From the NCBI GenBank assembly GCA_028275775.1, contig JAPWTZ010000012.1:1-16692 (forward strand): 16,692 nt of DNA, written 5' to 3'. The position numbers and the translations under genes are program-made. This DNA comes from Candidatus Nanopusillus sp. Lineage in GTDB: Archaea; Nanobdellota; Nanobdellia; Nanobdellales; Nanobdellaceae. The notes under the pieces are model-generated. The model made no database searches, had not been told where the DNA came from, and was given only the letters and a program-made list of their open reading frames with translations. This document shows, in pieces, positions 3,882 to 16,692 of this stretch. The stretch's first letter is position 1; every line of letters starts with the position of its first letter.

Positions 3882-4061
3882 AATAATTAATAATATAATT
3901 GATAATTGATAAGAATTTGATATTAATATTGGTATTGGGCCTATTAATATTAATCCAGCAAATTTTGTATTAGAAGAATTTGATAATGAATAAATAAATA
4001 ATAAAATAATTGAAATAAATAGAAAAATAATTGATAAAATTAAAAATATATTATTGTTCAT
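3825..4061 (-). CDS. small integral membrane protein, DUF131/TIGR00304-like
   Basis: 78 aa with hydrophobic segments flanking AGLILIGPIPILISNS. From memory this resembles the GG.I.IGPIPIVFG core of the archaeal DUF131 family. It overlaps the Dph2-like ORF by 11 nt and the convergent HAD gene by 57 nt. Confidence 0.45.
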   Translation of the reverse strand: MNNNIFLILSIIFLFISIILLFIYSLSNSSNTKFAGLILIGPIPILISNSYQLSIILLIILLIIILIILIIFFYKVII

Positions 4062-4326
4062 CTAACTTTAATTTATAAAATTTTGAATGGCCGAAATGAA
4101 TTATTAAATCAAATCCATATTTATCTAAATATATTGGTATATCGCATCCACCAAAATCTGATCCAAACCAAATATATATTTCAATATCTTTATATTTTTC
4201 CTTTATTTTATCGTATATTTCTTTTGAATATGGTTTTAATCCATCAGGAAATTGTAATAATATTTTCTTATATTTCTTTTTATCTAATGTTTCGAATATT
4301 TTATCCAATTCAAAATCTATTTCCAT
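4051..4326 (-). CDS. dph2: Dph2 (2-(3-amino-3-carboxypropyl)histidine synthase, diphthamide step 1), N-terminal domain only; split gene or remnant
   Basis: ILLQFPDGLKPYSKEIYDKIKE...IEIYIWFGSDFGGCDIPIYLDKYGFDLIIHFGHS aligns with the start of archaeal Dph2, recalled as VLIQSPEGL...YGACD...CDALIHLGHS. The ORF is only 91 aa, versus about 330-340 aa for full-length archaeal Dph2. The downstream DNA encodes an unrelated membrane ORF. Confidence 0.65.
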   Translation of the reverse strand: MEIDFELDKIFETLDKKKYKKILLQFPDGLKPYSKEIYDKIKEKYKDIEIYIWFGSDFGGCDIPIYLDKYGFDLIIHFGHSKFYKLKLDEQ

Positions 4327-5072
4327 TTAAATATTTTTAATATATTATCTATAAAACTATTTCTAATCTCTAATTCTTTTCCAGTTATTTTTTCTGCAAT
4401 TTTTATTATATCTTTAGATGCTATAGAATTTATATTATAATCTATTAAAGGTATACCATTATCCATTGAAATTTGTACATTTTCATCATAATGAATTATC
4501 CCAATTATTTGTCTTTTAAAAAATCTTTCAATTCTTAAATAATTTACTCTTCTTCTAACTTTATTTAAAACAATTCCAAGAGTTTTTATATCTAAACTAT
4601 CCAATACTTTTGTAACTCTATATGCATCAAATAATGATGATTTTTCAACATTTGTTATTAATATTGCCTCTTCAGAAGCTTTTAATGCCTCTATTGCTTC
4701 CTTACCAATTCCAGCAGCAGAATCTATAATAATATAATCAAAATCATCATATATTTCCATTATTCCATTATGTATTCTTTCTGTAGAAATATATATTAAA
4801 TCCTTTATATCTAAACTTCCAGGAATTATATAAAAATTTTCTTTATATTCCTTTATGCAATCTTTTATATCAATTTCCCCCCTTAGAAATTTATGTATAT
4901 TATTTTTTTCATTACCCAATCCAAGATTTATTGATACATTTGGTGTACTTAAATTAAAATCAATTAATAATGTTTTAAAATTTAATAATGATAGGGCTCT
5001 TGATAAGTTTATAGAAAAGAAAGTTTTTCCTACCCCTCCTTTTCCAGAAGATATTGTATATACCTTCGCCAT
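4317..5072 (-). CDS. MinD/ParA-family P-loop ATPase
   Basis: Deviant Walker A is SSGKGGVGKTFFSINLS. Walker B is YIIIDSAAGIG. The C-terminal FIDNILKIFKWK looks like an amphipathic membrane-targeting helix, as in MinD. The start overlaps the upstream stop by 1 nt (TAATG), and the stop overlaps the Dph2-like start by 10 nt. Confidence 0.85.
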   Translation of the reverse strand: MAKVYTISSGKGGVGKTFFSINLSRALSLLNFKTLLIDFNLSTPNVSINLGLGNEKNNIHKFLRGEIDIKDCIKEYKENFYIIPGSLDIKDLIYISTERIHNGIMEIYDDFDYIIIDSAAGIGKEAIEALKASEEAILITNVEKSSLFDAYRVTKVLDSLDIKTLGIVLNKVRRRVNYLRIERFFKRQIIGIIHYDENVQISMDNGIPLIDYNINSIASKDIIKIAEKITGKELEIRNSFIDNILKIFKWK

Positions 5073-5524
5073 TATATATATTTACTAATAATTGTAGAAA
5101 ATTTTTTAACAGATTCTGCAATATCTTTTAATGTTTTTATATTTATTTCAAATTCTTCTCCACTTAATGTCCTAAATTTTATAACCATACTCTTTCTATA
5201 TTCATTCATTATCCTTGCATCAGAATTTAAAGCAAGTTTTAATAGCTTATAATATTTTAATGATTCTTCCAGTTCCTTATCTTTTGTAATTTCAATTATT
5301 TTTCTATACCTTTTGATCGGACTATCTGGAATTTCATCAATCTTTTTATTTTCATATAATTTCTTAAAATATAATTCAATTGCATAATCATAATATTCAA
5401 TAACTGCCTTTATAAAACTTCTAACAGTTTCCAATCCTTTATTATTTTTCAATGAAACATTAAATATATGTAAAACCTCCTTATATCTTCTATTATATTC
5501 TAAATCTTCTTCTAAATTAGACAT
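5072..5524 (-). CDS. hypothetical protein (150 aa, mostly helical, no recognisable motif)
   Basis: A long ORF on the same strand as its neighbours and translationally coupled to the MinD-like gene. It has no Cys, no P-loop and no HEPN Rx4-6H motif, and I recognise no family. Confidence 0.55.
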   Translation of the reverse strand: MSNLEEDLEYNRRYKEVLHIFNVSLKNNKGLETVRSFIKAVIEYYDYAIELYFKKLYENKKIDEIPDSPIKRYRKIIEITKDKELEESLKYYKLLKLALNSDARIMNEYRKSMVIKFRTLSGEEFEINIKTLKDIAESVKKFSTIISKYI

Positions 5525-5670
5525 GATATATAAATATTTGCAATATATACTAGGGCCGCGAAAATAATTATAAATATTATTATTTTATTTCTATTTAATT
5601 TTATTTTTGATTTTTCTTTTCCAAATTTATATAATCCAAGATATGTAAATAGTGGTAGTTGGTCAGGCAT
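5512..5670 (-). CDS. 52-aa tail-anchored mini-protein, possibly Sec61 beta / archaeal SecG
   Basis: Hand translation of the minus strand from ATG (complement of 5668-5670) to TAG (complement of 5512-5514) gives MPDQLPLFTYLGLYKFGKEKSKIKLNRNKIIIFIIIFAALVYIANIYISCLI. It is below the size cutoff of the ORF track. It has one C-terminal TM helix. The GLYKF...SKIKL..N pattern resembles the archaeal Sec61beta pattern AGLIRY...KIRV.P followed by a TM, recalled from the Methanocaldococcus protein. A TTTATATA box lies about 22 nt upstream. It overlaps the next ORF by 13 nt. Confidence 0.4.
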   Translation of the reverse strand: MPDQLPLFTYLGLYKFGKEKSKIKLNRNKIIIFIIIFAALVYIANIYISCLI

Positions 5671-5702
5671 AATTTATATATTTATAAGAAATATATAAAA
5701 AA
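5671..5702. promoter_or_regulatory. bidirectional promoter: two inverted TTTATATA boxes
   Basis: TTTATATA at 5673-5680 (+) lies about 23 nt upstream of G5703, the start of the structured RNA. TTTATATA on the minus strand (complement of 5692-5699) lies about 22 nt upstream of ATG 5670. This spacing fits archaeal TATA-to-start distances and a leaderless mRNA. Confidence 0.5.
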
Positions 5703-5934
5703 GGTGGCCGTAGGAAGGTCTGCTTACCGATAAGCCACCGAGGAATCGGAGGGGGAAACCCCTGGCTACATAAAAAGAAATCACGGGCATATATCCGATG
5801 AAGATGAAGAGTTAATACCTGGAGGTAACTTCGGGTAAACTCGGAGAGGATATATGTACCTTGAGAAATATGTCCTGGCGGTACAAGGCCTGTCCGCTTA
5901 GAAAAATATATACTAAAAGCAGCCTACGGCCACA
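5703..5934 (+). ncRNA. rnpB: structured RNA, best read as a miniaturised RNase P RNA
   Basis: A G+C-rich island in A+T-rich DNA. The termini pair: GUGGCCGUAGG 5704-5714 with CCUACGGCCAC 5923-5933. GUAGGAAGGUCUGC resembles CR-I (GAGGAAAGUCCGGGC). ACUAAAAGCAGCCUA is in register with CR-V (ACAGAACCCGGCUUA). The two can form P4 (AGG-U-CUGC with GCAG-CCU) with the conserved bulged U. GCCA[CCGA-GGAA-UCGG]A[GGGG-GAAA-CCCC]UGGC at 5734-5766 looks like P7/P8/P9. GNRA-type loops occur only when the + strand is read. Confidence that this is a structured RNA gene is about 0.85. Confidence that it is RNase P RNA is about 0.6. Confidence 0.6.
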
Positions 5935-7617
5935 CTAATAACTTTTTCCTATATATACATAATATTTTGCATCTTTATTACAAAATATGCATTTTTTATC
6001 CTTCGCTTCTTCAGGTATAATATCAGTTCCCCTTACATCTAATGAATACTTTTCTTTAATATTCTTTGCGCATTCTTCTCTCATACAAAATGGAACTTTA
6101 AATGCTATATTTTTATCTAAATTATTTTCAAGATCTTTTAAATTATCTAATTTTAATATTTTATTTTCAAAATATTTTCTTGCCCTTTCCTTTATCTCTT
6201 TATCATATTCAACAATTAATTTATTTAGTTCATTTAATAAATTTTCTAATTTTACTTCATAATTTTTTGATTTATTATTATATTGTCTTATAGATATTGT
6301 AACTGTATTATTTTCCAATTCTTTTTTTCCAATAGATATTCTAAATGGTACTCCTAATAATTCATATTGATTAAATTTCCATCCAGGACTTTTTGTTTCA
6401 TCTTTATCAATTCTTACTCTATATTTTTCCTTTAATAAATTATATACTTTCTCACAATATTCTAATATTTTGTTCTTTTCATCTTCTGAATAATATATTG
6501 GGATAATTATTATTTGAATATTTGATATTTCAAAAGGTAATATTAAACCTTTATTATCTCCATGTATTGAAATTACTGCACTTAATGTTCTCATAGATAT
6601 TCCAAAAGATGTTTGCCAAGCAAATTTTTTATTAATTAATTTATTTTCGTTAAATTTATTTTTAATTATATCACTTATTTTATTTATTAAATCTTTATTA
6701 TCTTCAGATATTTCTCCATTAAATTCAATATTTCCTTCATATGATTTAATTAATTCATTATTATTATATAATCTTATTTTTATTTTATTCTCAATAATTT
6801 CTATTTCATATCTATAATTATTTTCATTAAATGCCTCAAATTTATTTTTATCTATTTTTATAAATGGATGCTCATCCTCGAAAATAATATTAAATGCTTT
6901 AGAGAAATTTCTTCCCAATAAATGGGTAGTTCCAATTTGTAAAAACCTTCCATCAGGTAATATAGTATCTGCAGCTAATGTATAATCCGCTCCAGCAAAT
7001 TTATCCCAATCAGGTCTTCTTACCCATATATGTGGTATTGATAAATGATCCCAAAATACTTTTGAATAAATTTCCATAGATTTTTTTATCATTCTTTCTG
7101 TATCATCCAAATCTTTATGCACAGTATGTGCTTCGTTCCATAAAATTTCTCTTCCTCTAATTAATGGTTTTGTTGCTTTTGTTTCATATCTATATACTGT
7201 ATTTGTCATATAAGTTAACAAAGGTAGATCTCTGTAAGATTTTATCCATAAAGAAAACATATAATACATTTCAGTTTCAGATGTTGGTCTTAATATATAT
7301 TTTATTTCTTTTTCTTCTTCTATTGGTTTTGATGGAGTAACATAAAATACTTCGGATTCAAAACCTTTTATATGTTCACTTTCTCTTTTAAATATATCAT
7401 ATGGAATTAATATTGGGAACCAGTATGGTTCAAATCCATTTTTTTCTAATTCATCTTCTAAAATACTTAATATTTTTCTAATTGCAAAATACCCATTTGG
7501 ATAATAAACAGGCATTCCTTTTACAGGATATCTATCATCAATAATCTTAGAAATTCTTACTATATTATTATACCATTCAGAAAAATTAGAATTCTTATCT
7601 AAATTGACTTCTTTCAT
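5935..7617 (-). CDS. proS: prolyl-tRNA synthetase, archaeal/eukaryote-like type, with an insertion
   Basis: Class II ProRS motifs are present: ILRPTSETEMYYMF, RGREILWNEAHTVH, WQTSFGISMRTLSAVISIHGDNKGLILP. There is an anticodon-binding domain and a C-terminal Cys cluster (CMREEC...CIFC). The protein ends in Tyr (GKSY), as is typical for this ProRS type. It is 560 aa because of a roughly 75-aa insert (see findings). Confidence 0.93.
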   Translation of the reverse strand: MKEVNLDKNSNFSEWYNNIVRISKIIDDRYPVKGMPVYYPNGYFAIRKILSILEDELEKNGFEPYWFPILIPYDIFKRESEHIKGFESEVFYVTPSKPIEEEKEIKYILRPTSETEMYYMFSLWIKSYRDLPLLTYMTNTVYRYETKATKPLIRGREILWNEAHTVHKDLDDTERMIKKSMEIYSKVFWDHLSIPHIWVRRPDWDKFAGADYTLAADTILPDGRFLQIGTTHLLGRNFSKAFNIIFEDEHPFIKIDKNKFEAFNENNYRYEIEIIENKIKIRLYNNNELIKSYEGNIEFNGEISEDNKDLINKISDIIKNKFNENKLINKKFAWQTSFGISMRTLSAVISIHGDNKGLILPFEISNIQIIIIPIYYSEDEKNKILEYCEKVYNLLKEKYRVRIDKDETKSPGWKFNQYELLGVPFRISIGKKELENNTVTISIRQYNNKSKNYEVKLENLLNELNKLIVEYDKEIKERARKYFENKILKLDNLKDLENNLDKNIAFKVPFCMREECAKNIKEKYSLDVRGTDIIPEEAKDKKCIFCNKDAKYYVYIGKSY

Positions 7618-7722: not shown

Positions 7723-10690
7723 GGGGGATGAGAGGGAATATATAGTCTCAGGAACCCGCCCGGTGGATGCCTGGGCTCGGAAGCCGAAGAAGGGCGCGGC
7801 AAGCTGCGAAAAGCCGGAGGGAGGTGCATGCAACCGTTGATCTCCGGATCCCCGAATGGGATATCCTGCTGAAAGGCATCCCGTAAGGGAGGGGAACGCG
7901 GGGAAGGGAAACATCCTAGTACCCGTAGGAATAAAAAACAAATTGTGATTTCCTGAGTAGGGGCGACCGAAAGGGAAGGAGCCTAAACCGAATCCTCTAA
8001 AGTAATTTAGAGGAGATGTGGGGTAAAGGAGCGGGAGCTTCCCGTTATTGTATTCCCAGAACTCCGGTGGAAGTCCGGGGCCGTAGAGGGTGACAGCCCC
8101 GTATGGGAATACAGTAACGGGATTTCCCGTTTCCGGAGTACCGGCGGTTGGATTTCCGTCGGGAAGTTGGGGGAAACTAGCCCCCAAGGCTAAATACTCT
8201 CCGAGTCCGATAGCGTATTAGTAGGGCGACCGAAAGGTGAAAAGAACCCTTGGTAGGGGGTGAAAAGAGCCTGAAACCGGGCGGGGATAGTCTGGTAGGG
8301 CTAGTTAAGCATCCTATCTGGGAAAATCTGGTGACAGATGAGTACCAGATAGGGTGCTAGCTAGTTCTACCGTGAGTTTTGAAGAACTTGCGGGGGAGTA
8401 TACCCGAGTGGCGAGGTTAAGGTTTATACCGGAGCCATAGGGAAACCGAAAGCCCGCAACCTGGGTTTTCCCAGGTGAGGGGCGCCGTCCCATAAGGGCG
8501 GTTTAGTCACTCGGGTATGACCGGAAACCGGGCGATCTACCCCGGGGCAGGGTGAAGCGGGTTTCCCGTGGAGGCCCGAAGAGGTGGAGCTTACTCCTCT
8601 CATGACCTTGGGGTAGAGGTGAAAAGCCACTCGGGCCCGGTTATAGCCGGTCCCCGCCGAAACTGACCCCAGCCAGGTCTCGGGTTAGGATCCCTTTGGT
8701 GTAGAGCGACGGATTCTGTACGGGTTTCCGTACAGAGTCCAACTCCGAAGCCATAGGGTCCGTAGCCCGGGAAACGGGGGTTGCGGGAAAGCCGCAACTC
8801 CGAGACGGGAACAACCGAGACCGAGGTTAAGGCCCCAAAGTGCTGGCTAAACGATGTTGAAGGAGTCTGCCCCCTAAGACATCGGGGATGTGGGCCTAAT
8901 AGTGGCCATCATCTAAGGAGTGTGTAACAACTCACCCGACGAGGGGGTAGGCTCCGAAAACGGACGGGTCTAAGCCAGCCGCCGAGACCTCGGTCCGCTG
9001 GCAAATGCCAGCGTGAGGTAGGCGGGCGTCCCGATGGCCTAGAAGGGTTCCCGAAAGGGAGCCTGGAGCCGTCGGGAATGAAGATCCCCGCGGTAGTAAG
9101 AATCAGACGGGTGAGAATCCCGTCGGCCGAAAGGGGAAAGGTTTCCCAGGCAATGAAGATCAGCCTGGGGTTAGTCGATCCTAATCCAGGCTCCGAGAGG
9201 AGTCTGGAGAAAGGGAAAGGGGTTAATATTCCCCTACCGCCCCGATAGATGCGGCAACGCAACGCCCTTTCCCGACCCGGAGGGCTAGGCGTACACGGGG
9301 GTGGGGTAAAACCCACTTACCGTGCCAAGGGGGATAGGACCGGGGAGTACCGTCATGGTGAGAACCGGTCTAAACCCTGATGGGCCCGAAAGGGTTATGC
9401 CGAGGCCTTCCAGCAATGAAAAGGGAAAGGGTGCGATTCGAGGCGATCGTACCGAAATCCAGCATAGGTCCCCTGGGTGAGAAGCCTAAGGCCGTGGGGG
9501 TCAAGCCGGTCTAGGGAACTTGGCAAATTGGTCCCGTAACTTCGGGAGAAGGGATGCCTGCGGTGTGGACCGCAGGTCGCAGTGACAAGGACGGGCGGAC
9601 TGTTTACCAAAAACATAGCTCCCAGCAAGCCCGAAAGGGTTTGTACTGGGGGTGACGTCTGCTCGGTGCCGGTATCTGAATCCCCCGTTCAAGGGGGGTA
9701 AGGACCGGTAAACGGCGGGGGTAACTCTGACCCTCTTAAGGTAGCGTAATGCCTTGCCAGTTAAATGCTGGCTCTGCGAACGACGTAACTAGCCCGCCAC
9801 TGTCCCGGGCCGGCGCCCCCTGAAAAGCTATCCTGGTGAGAAGGCCAGGGACTTCCGATGGGTAAGAAGGACCCCGTGAAGCTTAACCGCAGCCTGTTGT
9901 TGCTCTGAAGAACCTGGTGTGTAGGGTAGCGGGGAGCGATGAATTCCTGCCGCTAGGTAGGAAGGATGCGACGATGAAACACCCGCCTCCAGGTTCTTCA
10001 GGGCTAACCCGAAAGGGGACAGCGGCAGGTGGGCGGTTTGGCTGGGGCGGCACCTTGCCGAAAAGGTATCGGCAGGGTCCATAAGGTCAGCTCAGGCGGG
10101 TCAGAAATCCGCCGTAGAGGACAAGGCCAAAAGCTGGCCTGACTGTGCCCTGACCATCAAGGGGCACAGGGGGGAAACCCGGGCCTAGCGAACCCCGTAC
10201 TCTCACTAGTGGGGGTACGGGCTGGCGGAAAAGCTACTCCGGGGGTAACAGCGCCGTCGCGGGCGAGAGCCCCCATTGACCCCGCGGTTTGCGACATCGA
10301 TGTCGTCTCTCCCCATCCTGGTGGTGCAGAAGCCGCCAAGGGTGGGGGTGTCCACCCATTAAAGGGGATCGTGAGATGGGTTCAGAACGCCGCGAGGCAG
10401 TTCGGTTATAACTGTCGGAAGTGCTGGCCGCCTGAGGGGAAGGTCCGCCTAGTACGAAAGGAACGGCGGGCCGGGGCCTCTGGTATACGGGCTGTCCGTG
10501 AAGGGCATGCCCGGTAGCTACGCCCTAGGGGATAAGCCCTGAAAGCATCTAAGGGTGAAGCCCCCCTCAAAAATAGGCGGCCGTTAAGGGGTCGGATAAA
10601 AGATCCGACTCAGAGCGGCGGTGTAAGCTCCGAAAAGGAGTTCAGCCGACCGCTTGAAGTTCCCGTGAGACTATATATTCCCTCGACCCC
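7723..10690 (+). rRNA. rrl: 23S (LSU) rRNA including flanking processing-stem arms
   Basis: The plus strand carries GGUGGAUGCCUGGGC (5' domain), GCUGGGGCGG, GGGGUAACAG...AUCGAUGUCG...GGGUUCAGAACG..CAGUUCGGU (peptidyl-transferase region) and AGUACGAAAGGAAC (sarcin-ricin loop). The arm 7732-7749 (GAGGGAAUAUAUAGUCUC) pairs perfectly over 18 bp with 10667-10684. This is extended by GGGG 7724-7727 with CCCC 10687-10690, and by GGAAC 7751-7755 with GUUCC 10659-10663. The mature ends are probably near 7750 and 10665. Confidence 0.97.
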
Positions 10691-14867: not shown

Positions 14868-15365
14868 TTATAAATAATATTTTGAAAGGTATTCTAAAAT
14901 ATTTTTTATTCCAAAAACATATTTTTCTTTCATAGAAATTATTTCATATATAAAATTTAGCATATCTTTATAATCTGTAAATATATAAGGTTCTTTATTT
15001 AAATATTTTGATATATAATATTCTGAAACATTATATCCAATATTATAGAAATATTTGTTATTTTTTTGGATTAAATATTTATATTTTTCCTCTTTTTTAT
15101 AATTGTATAATAAAAAAGATAAAAATACTCCTTCTATTGGTAATATTAATATTGAATTTTCCTTTATTTCAATTTCTTCAACTTTTTTATATATATTTAA
15201 ATTAATTTTAAATCCCATATTGAATTTTTTATCTATTTTATTTATTATATCTAAAACAAAATCTTTTGTATTTGATTCTAATGCAATTATATTTATATTA
15301 GAATTTCTTTTGAATTTTTTTGAATTTCTAATCTCCCTTTTTGTCAATTTTTCATATATATTCAT
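14868..15365 (-). CDS. hypothetical protein (165 aa)
   Basis: A long same-strand ORF whose start overlaps the TGT stop (ATGA). I recognise no motif. Confidence 0.5.
   Translation of the reverse strand: MNIYEKLTKREIRNSKKFKRNSNINIIALESNTKDFVLDIINKIDKKFNMGFKINLNIYKKVEEIEIKENSILILPIEGVFLSFLLYNYKKEEKYKYLIQKNNKYFYNIGYNVSEYYISKYLNKEPYIFTDYKDMLNFIYEIISMKEKYVFGIKNILEYLSKYYL

Positions 15366-16598: not shown

Positions 16599-16692
<94 letters not shown>

Follow-up and report, generated by a model that had tools for sequence, protein, structure and literature searches.

Can an RNA that has lost helices P2 and P3 still serve as the RNA subunit of ribonuclease P (RNase P), the enzyme responsible for trimming tRNAs at their 5' ends? 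The question is raised by a locus in contig JAPWTZ010000012.1 of Candidatus Nanopusillus sp., analysed here over its whole length of 16,692 nucleotides (nt; "the window"). An earlier note, made from the letters of the window, had pointed to a G+C-rich RNA gene of about 232 nt at positions 5703–5934, lying behind an upstream box, and had read it as the RNase P RNA (RPR) of a Nanoarchaeota-like host, with helix P1 running straight into conserved region I (CR-I). The results below make it very probable that window positions 5702–5936 (+ strand) encode the RNase P RNA of an archaeon from the Nanopusillaceae, and that the gene is the orthologue of the Candidatus Nanobsidianus stetteri Nst1 RNA gene.

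The identity of the RNA was approached in two ways. Firstly, an E-value scan of positions 5600–6050 returned a match to RF00373, the Rfam model of archaeal RNase P, at 5702–5936 (+ strand). The match scores 68.8 bits (E = 4.1e-19) and spans the model end to end (positions 1–288). The order of elements in the model is kept—CR-I, P5, P7, P8, P9, P10/11, CR-II, P12, CR-III, J5/15, CR-IV, CR-V, P1—and all five conserved regions, which are also the best-conserved stretches among 14 relatives, are aligned in canonical order. Three parts of the model are missing from the RNA: (i) model positions 12–34, comprising the distal P1/P2 5' strand and the P3 hairpin, (ii) six positions of the P2 3' strand, and (iii) the P15/P16 insert, which is reduced from 37 nt to 1 nt. 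When the scan of 5600–6050 was carried to E = 10, only RNaseP_arch and two chance-level matches (E ~10) were left; no model of signal recognition particle (SRP) RNA, the competing family named in the earlier note, was among them. Secondly, the segment stands out in composition and folding. Its G+C content is 48.5% (5700–5899), compared with ~19–29% in the flanking DNA, and the + strand of 5703–5934 reaches a minimum free energy of -90.2 kcal/mol against a shuffle mean of -59.2 (z = -6.56; 0 of 200 shuffles as good). An RNA from the minus strand was considered and set aside, its fold being much weaker (z = -3.7 versus -6.6 for the + strand).

Relatives were sought by scanning a collection of genomes with the pattern GGAARGTCYNC-N{175,205}-ACTAAARGNNGCYTA. 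This pattern fixes CR-I and CR-V and leaves the 5' side of CR-I free; its gap range still admits a P2 3' strand. Eighteen matches were obtained, 14 of them in Nanopusillaceae. The other four, all bacterial (L015, L017, L020, L027), lie in no P1 or CR context and were dropped as fortuitous. Among the orthologues are those of Candidatus Nanopusillus acidilobi (CP010514), Nanobdella aerobiophila MJ1, strain YN1 and two Ca. Nanobsidianus stetteri assemblies. The orthologues measure 236–240 nt with the same flanks; identity is 95.8% to Nst1 locus APJZ01000002 (aligned RNA plus a few flanking bases) and 65–80% to the most distant family members. The family of the host, which is Nanoarchaeota-like as the earlier note supposed, was read from the prolyl-tRNA synthetase (ProRS) gene that adjoins the RPR gene in convergent orientation (5935–7617, − strand). 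The closest ProRS homologues (90–98% identical) come from metagenome or genome assemblies, and the next tier is named Nanopusillaceae or Nanoarchaeota. The protein is 93% identical to ProRS on OBNano_10002, an Obsidian Pool nanoarchaeon assembly, and 75% identical to that of complete genome AP031373.1 (strain YN1); at both of these loci the RPR lies in the same ProRS-adjacent intergenic region.

The elements of the RNA outside its specificity domain are as follows.

5702–5936, + strand: RNase P RNA gene, ~232–235 nt (RF00373 match, fold z-score, 14 orthologues at 65–97% identity).
5703–5710, + strand: P1 5' strand, GGUGGCCG; 5704–5710 pair with 5927–5933.
5711–5724, + strand: CR-I, GUAGGAAGGUCUGCU, made up of J1/4 and the P4 5' strand (A5716–G5718, bulged U5719, C5720–U5724); aligned to AGGAAAgUCCcCC of RF00373.
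5725–5728, + strand: P5 5' strand, UACC, paired with 5880–5883 (GGUA); 100% paired, with an A-U to G-C change in two sequences.
5884–5895, + strand: J5/15, consisting of conserved CAAGG, a variable linker of 4–5 nt and CC; P15 remnant (RF00373 alignment).
5896–5907, + strand: CR-IV, GCUUAGAAAAAU, aligned to GCuuAGucGAAU of RF00373; nearly invariant in relatives.
5908–5926, + strand: CR-V, AUAUACUAAAAGCAGCCUA, with the P4 3' strand at 5918–5925; six model positions deleted.
5927–5934, + strand: P1 3' strand, CGGCCACA (covariation model).

Is this architecture upheld by the relatives? The structure was scored on a 14-sequence alignment (A3), using an explicit canonical model of P1, P4 with its bulged U, P5, P7, P8, P9, P10/11 and P12. 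Without P2 and P3, this model places 96.6% of 923 cells in standard pairs, and double, compensatory changes are seen in 38 of its 66 pairs. The observed values were not reached on any measure in 500 column shuffles, and sliding the 3' partners by 1–3 columns drops pairing to 31–42%. Compensatory changes on this scale across 14 species argue that the RPR is a conserved RNase P RNA under selection for structure, rather than a decaying remnant.

The two helices that define the core are P1 and P4. P1 carries compensatory changes in relatives (G-C to A-U, G-C to C-G). Between its 5' strand and the GGAA of CR-I, where the P2 5' strand and P3 normally follow, there are only two nucleotides (U5711–A5712), and this gap is exactly 2 nt in 15 of 15 loci; the earlier note's reading that there is no room for P2/P3 therefore holds throughout the family. 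On the other side of the molecule, the deletion of the P2 3' strand falls between 5907 and 5908. P4, in the register first proposed for it (AGG-U-CUGC with GCAG-CCU), forms as AGG-U-CUGCU with AGCAG-CCU: every cell is paired, four of its eight pairs covary—including a switch from AGG/CCU to AAG/CUU—and the U5719 bulge is invariant in relatives. The universal RNase P core is thus in place, with P4 built from CR-I and CR-V, a bulged U and an A-rich J3/4 (here J1/4), and CR-I, CR-IV and CR-V are nearly invariant in relatives. In the model P4 is simply nested inside P1 with no pseudoknot, because both P2 and P6 are gone; the RPR appears, on this model, to be free of pseudoknots.

Two alternative foldings suggested by RNAalifold were rejected. 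The first extends P1 by UAGG/CCUA (5711–5714 with 5923–5926) and so competes with the AGG/CCU of P4; it leaves three cells unpaired and shows no double change. Of the terminal helix originally put at 8–11 bp, P1 is accordingly real at 7–8 bp, and the extension to 11 bp is not retained. The UAGG/CCUA pairing can be drawn in 11 of the 14 sequences, and probably exists only because CR-I repeats AGG, not as a switch. The second folding replaces P5/P7 with a hairpin, GGCGG/CCGCU; it has two unpaired cells and almost no double changes, compared with P4, P5 and P7, each of which is 100% paired.

A further observation concerns the single-stranded joiner AUAUAUACUAAA (5906–5917), which links CR-IV to CR-V in place of the P2 3' strand. 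It is identical in 14 of 14 sequences, while nearby helices vary freely. By eye, no covarying pairing partner for it was noticed in the alignment of relatives.

The specificity domain, in contrast with the pruned catalytic domain, is complete. Its elements are listed here.

5734–5737, + strand: P7 5' strand, GCCA, paired with 5876–5879 (UGGC); 100% paired, 4 of 4 pairs covary.
5738–5749, + strand: P8 hairpin, CCGA-GGAA-UCGG; 100% paired, 2 of 4 pairs covary.
5750–5763, + strand: P9 hairpin, AGGGG-GAAA-CCCCU; 100% paired, 4 of 5 pairs covary.
5764–5772, + strand: P10/11 5' strand, paired with 5869–5875; 96.9% paired, 3 of 7 pairs covary.
~5773–5784, + strand: CR-II (J11/12), AAAAGAAAUCAC, aligned to ACAGAAACGAcA of RF00373; AGAAA kept in relatives.
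5785–5860, + strand: P12, with a proximal stem (5785–5796/5848–5860) and a distal stem-loop (5809–5842) with a GUAA loop (covariation).
~5859–5872, + strand: CR-III, CCUUGAGAAAUAUG (RF00373 alignment).
5861–5868, + strand: CR-III core (J12/10), UUGAGAAA, aligned to UGAAAC of RF00373; CTTGA-AA invariant in relatives.

The GCCA/UGGC stem with its two tetraloop hairpins, likened in the earlier note to P7/P8/P9, thus consists of P7, P8 and P9, all with covariation. The same note's assignments of CR-II (GAUGAAGAUGAAG) and CR-III (GGGUAAACUCGGAGAGG) were mistaken; both motifs lie inside P12 according to the RF00373 alignment. In P12 the proximal stem is 91.6% paired with 7 of 12 pairs covarying, and the distal stem 97.4% paired with 11 of 14, giving 18 of 26 in total. 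The predicted 9-bp helix (5788–5796/5848–5856) is present, and its end resembles a kink-turn (K-turn), with a G5797–U5799 bulge and G5800–A5801 opposite G5846–A5847 (signature CC-GAU-GA opposite GA-GG). This K-turn-like motif, a predicted L7Ae site, is kept in 13 of 14 relatives. In Nanobdella aerobiophila MJ1 (L018; RNA at 2757–2967, − strand) GAU-GA/GA is replaced by GAA-AA/UU, possibly two A-U pairs, and the predicted L7Ae site may have been lost or moved in this genus.

Downstream of P5, the suspicion that P15/P16 are tiny or absent was borne out. Only 28 nt (5884–5911) separate the P5 3' strand from CR-V, into which no P15/P16 hairpin fits, and the P15 slot is a variable linker of 9–10 nt in all 14 sequences. 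No L15, P16, P17 or P6 was found in the RPR by the RF00373 alignment.

The gene is flanked by plausible transcription signals.

5673–5680, + strand: TATA box, TTTATATA, 30 nt before P1; its centre is ~26–27 nt before G5703.
5943–5947, + strand: TTTTT, an oligo-T run 9 nt beyond P1 and inside the 3' end of the ProRS gene; probably an archaeal terminator.

The first of these is the upstream box of the earlier note. A TATA-like box lies 29–34 nt upstream of P1 in the relatives scored, with CTTATATA in the other two, and a T-run lies 8–11 nt after P1 in 12 of 15 loci. Given the typical archaeal promoter spacing from the TATA box, transcription probably starts at or beside the first base of P1, G5703.

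The neighbourhood of the gene is stable. All 14 Nanopusillaceae genomes share a syntenic block of ProRS, RPR, a 150-amino-acid (aa) open reading frame (ORF) and a ParA-like gene. Around the ProRS genes of Nanoclepta (L008) and of a relative whose ProRS is 58% identical (L009), there is no synteny with the window. The 150-aa ORF (5072–5524, − strand) is lysine-rich, belongs to no Pfam or NCBIfam family and is the divergent neighbour of the RPR gene. At its 3' end it shares one base with the start of the ParA/MinD-like ATPase gene (4317–5072), and the pair is found in all 14 genomes at 44–99% identity. We considered whether this ORF might be the missing POP5 or a novel subunit; this is not supported, as it has no Pfam, NCBIfam or RNase P protein (RPP) match and the ATPase gene lies directly downstream. 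Since the whole block is syntenic in all 14 genomes, adjacency of the ORF to the RPR carries no specific signal. It is probably a partner of the ATPase, encoded in the same operon, and not an RNase P protein.

How does this RNA relate to those already described? The closest is the Nst1 RNA, an orthologue with the same synteny and the same loss of P2 and P3; at 93% ProRS identity, Nst1 is a different population or species. That RNA was found with Infernal by Podar et al. in 2013, who noted that it falls considerably short of other archaeal RPRs in length and cannot be brought into the typical fold (PMC3655853). Remodelling of its catalytic domain was then proposed by Samanta et al. (2016; PMC4919917). 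Most recently, "Coevolution of RNase P and the ribosome" (PNAS, 2 March 2026) states that P3 and P2 were deleted within the Nanoarchaeales (Nanopusillaceae), models the Ca. Nanobsidianus stetteri RPR without P3 and P2 (SI Fig. S12), and uses the reduced Nst1 RNA to argue that P4 is the primary helix and P2 a dispensable tertiary helix (PMC12974513). Both the gene (2013) and the P2/P3-less architecture (2026) are therefore already published for a ~96%-identical orthologue, and the "new intermediate" announced in the earlier note is no new kind of object. Four points go unmentioned in PMC3655853 and in the main text of PMC12974513: the K-turn motif, the evidence from covariation, the absence of P15/P16, and the 2-nt junction of P1 with CR-I that runs through the family. 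The present additions are incremental only: covariation across 14 species, the unchanging P1/CR-I junction, P15/P16 shown to be missing, and a connection to the POP5/RPP30 contacts.

Other known forms differ more. Type A RNAs (RF00373; Pyrococcus, Methanothermobacter) share with the present RNA CR-I to CR-V, P1, the bulged U of P4, P5, P7–P9, P10/11 and a K-turn-like P12; like them, it has a complete specificity domain (P7–P12, including P8). Unlike them, it has no P3 hairpin and no P2 pseudoknot helix to separate P1 from CR-I, it lacks the P15-L15-P16 element with the P6 pseudoknot (the 3'-CCA binding loop), and it is ~232 nt long rather than ~290–320 nt. Type M RNAs (Methanococcales, Archaeoglobus) cannot read the tRNA 3'-CCA tail and depend on proteins. 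They, too, lack L15, P16 and P6, but they have no P8 and keep P2/P3, which seat Pop5 and Rpp30 in the cryo-electron microscopy structure from Methanocaldococcus jannaschii (PMC6565675). The RPR described here shows the reverse arrangement, and the presence of P8 excludes type M. Type T RNAs (Pyrobaculum; RF02357) are likewise naturally miniaturised, with RNA reduction matched by protein loss (RPP21 in type T). The two reductions are, however, complementary: in type T the catalytic domain is intact and the specificity domain has for the most part gone, leaving a hairpin, whereas the RPR here keeps the specificity domain and prunes the catalytic one. Finally, the mitochondrial RNase P RNA of ascomycetes (Saccharomyces cerevisiae RPM1) is also without P2 and P3 and keeps P1 and P4; it has lost most of the specificity domain too, and works with an unrelated protein, Rpm2. 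The Nst1 RNA is set beside this yeast mitochondrial RNA in the 2026 paper (PMC12974513).

What, then, might such an RNA do, and with which proteins? Within the holoenzyme of M. jannaschii, the junction of P2 and P3 carries Pop5, which also grips CR-IV; Rpp30 touches P2–P3 of the partner RNA to give a dimer, and Rpp21-Rpp29-L7Ae bind the specificity domain (PMC6565675). The closest relative, Nst1, encodes RPP21, RPP29 and a divergent RPP30 (PMC3655853); L7Ae is present and POP5 was not detected (PMC4919917). Reports from Nst1 thus supply the RNase P protein genes for which the earlier note had proposed a search. In the window itself, protein family scans found none of POP5, RPP30, RPP21, RPP29 or L7Ae, and the unannotated 165-aa and 150-aa ORFs match no RPP family. 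Conservation of the RNA, together with the RPPs reported in Nst1, suggests that the RPR cleaves 5' leaders from pre-tRNAs. On this reading, (i) the specificity domain with RPP21-RPP29 and L7Ae would read the tRNA elbow, (ii) the P4 core would cleave the 5' leader, and (iii) the RNA would offer no site for the tRNA 3'-CCA tail. The P2/P3 platform for POP5/RPP30 docking and dimerisation would be gone, together with POP5 itself. Absence of this platform would agree with the report that POP5 could not be found in Nst1, and would predict a holoenzyme without P3-mediated dimer contact. As for 5' leaders on tRNAs, no tRNA gene lies in the window; the 17 related loci hold one (tRNA-His, L016), whose upstream region is AT-rich without clear TATA spacing, a single gene only.

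These considerations lead to a tentative proposal: the family may possess a POP5-free, pseudoknot-free archaeal RNase P, monomeric or differently assembled, in which the AUAUAUACUAAA linker and the divergent RPP30 replace P2/P3 scaffolding. Of this proposal only the RNA architecture is in print, the co-loss of protein and its consequences for the mechanism being hypothetical. Three observations weigh against the picture drawn so far. The RF00373 score lies below the curated gathering score (84), and a gathering-mode Rfam scan of the window accordingly does not report RNase P, returning only archaeal 23S rRNA and a cut 16S rRNA 3' end; the shortfall arises because ~65 model positions are deleted (the P15/P16 insert, P3 in its entirety and P2 on both sides). 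The absence of POP5 comes from sequence searches by others, a diverged POP5 could exist, and CR-IV is fully conserved here. Lastly, Nanobdella is without the P12 K-turn motif, and the binding of L7Ae is a prediction from sequence only.

The strongest alternative takes up the second of these points. On this account the holoenzyme is canonical: a highly diverged POP5, or a lineage-specific substitute, binds CR-IV and RPP30, and the loss of P2/P3 altered the RNA scaffold only, not the protein inventory or oligomeric state. In its favour, CR-IV, which Pop5 grips in M. jannaschii, is conserved here; POP5 of type T is only 95–98 aa and hard to detect, and Samanta et al. caution that missing RPPs may have diverged past detection (PMC4919917). 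Yet two groups found no POP5 (PMC3655853, PMC4919917), and the P2/P3 junction that seats Pop5 is gone. Nor does the window supply a candidate, given that its 150-aa and 165-aa ORFs match no RPP family and the former probably belongs, by its one-base overlap, to a ParA-like operon. We regard a canonical holoenzyme as a serious but rather unlikely explanation.

A second alternative is that the gene is a relic, transcribed or not, non-catalytic and heading for loss as in Nanoarchaeum equitans—the "partial degradation" of Podar et al., who could not fold the Nst1 RNA (PMC3655853). The large catalytic-domain deletions in the RF00373 alignment, the reported lack of RNase P in the sister lineage N. 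equitans and the failure to find POP5 in Nst1 (PMC4919917) would all suit decay. Decay is nevertheless hard to reconcile with double changes in 38 of 66 pairs and 96.6% of cells paired across 14 species at 65–97% identity, which largely refute it; with invariant CR-I, CR-IV, CR-V and P4 bulged U; with lengths that differ by only a few nucleotides (236–240 nt); with a conserved promoter and terminator; or with the three or four protein subunits retained (PMC3655853, PMC4919917). A relic is thus very improbable. That the gene encodes some other structured RNA, such as SRP RNA, with only a superficial likeness to RNase P is suggested by the sub-threshold RF00373 score and is refuted by the E-value of 4e-19 over the full model span, the conserved regions in order and the covariation in RNase P-specific helices, including P4 with its bulged U, leaving it practically no probability. 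The preferred reading remains a structurally constrained RNase P RNA, with the POP5-free enzyme as its tentative extension.

Several other features of the window deserve a record. The 23S (7739–10677, + strand) and 16S (16613–16692, − strand) rRNA genes are unlinked, lying on opposite strands ~5.9 kb apart, and no 5S rRNA gene is present in the window. Between them are genes for a type IV pilus/secretion ATPase, membrane proteins, ribosomal protein S19 and tRNA-guanine transglycosylase. The last two flank the 165-aa ORF (14868–15365, − strand), which is called in all syntenic relatives and has no Pfam or NCBIfam match and only chance-level matches in the PDB. Nearly all prokaryotes carry GGAUCACCUCC at the 3' end of 16S rRNA. 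Here, the 16S rRNA 3' end (16613–16640, − strand) reads ...CUGCGGCUGGAUCUAGUU.., and GGAUCUAGUU is invariant in the window and in L002, L003, L005 and L006 (alignment A4). Only a conserved UCC follows a few nucleotides on, and this family therefore seems to lack the canonical anti-Shine-Dalgarno sequence or to carry it elsewhere. A 91-aa ORF (4051–4326, − strand) covers no more of the 302-position diphthamide synthase profile than its first 58 positions, and relatives have an 89-aa counterpart in the same place; it looks like a split gene. DPH2 is listed as split in Nst1 (Podar et al. 2013, PMC3655853).

What the locus offers is a ribozyme variant that keeps P4 without P2, both real and unusual, and one that was recognised from raw sequence. 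The loss of P2/P3 coincides with the reported lack of POP5, making a cultivable clade (N. acidilobi, N. aerobiophila and YN1) a good one for biochemistry on protein–RNA co-reduction. If the POP5-free reading is true, the enzyme would be a counterpart to type T with the reduction in its catalytic domain, and a minimal system provided by nature in which to study the roles of P2/P3, POP5 and dimerisation.

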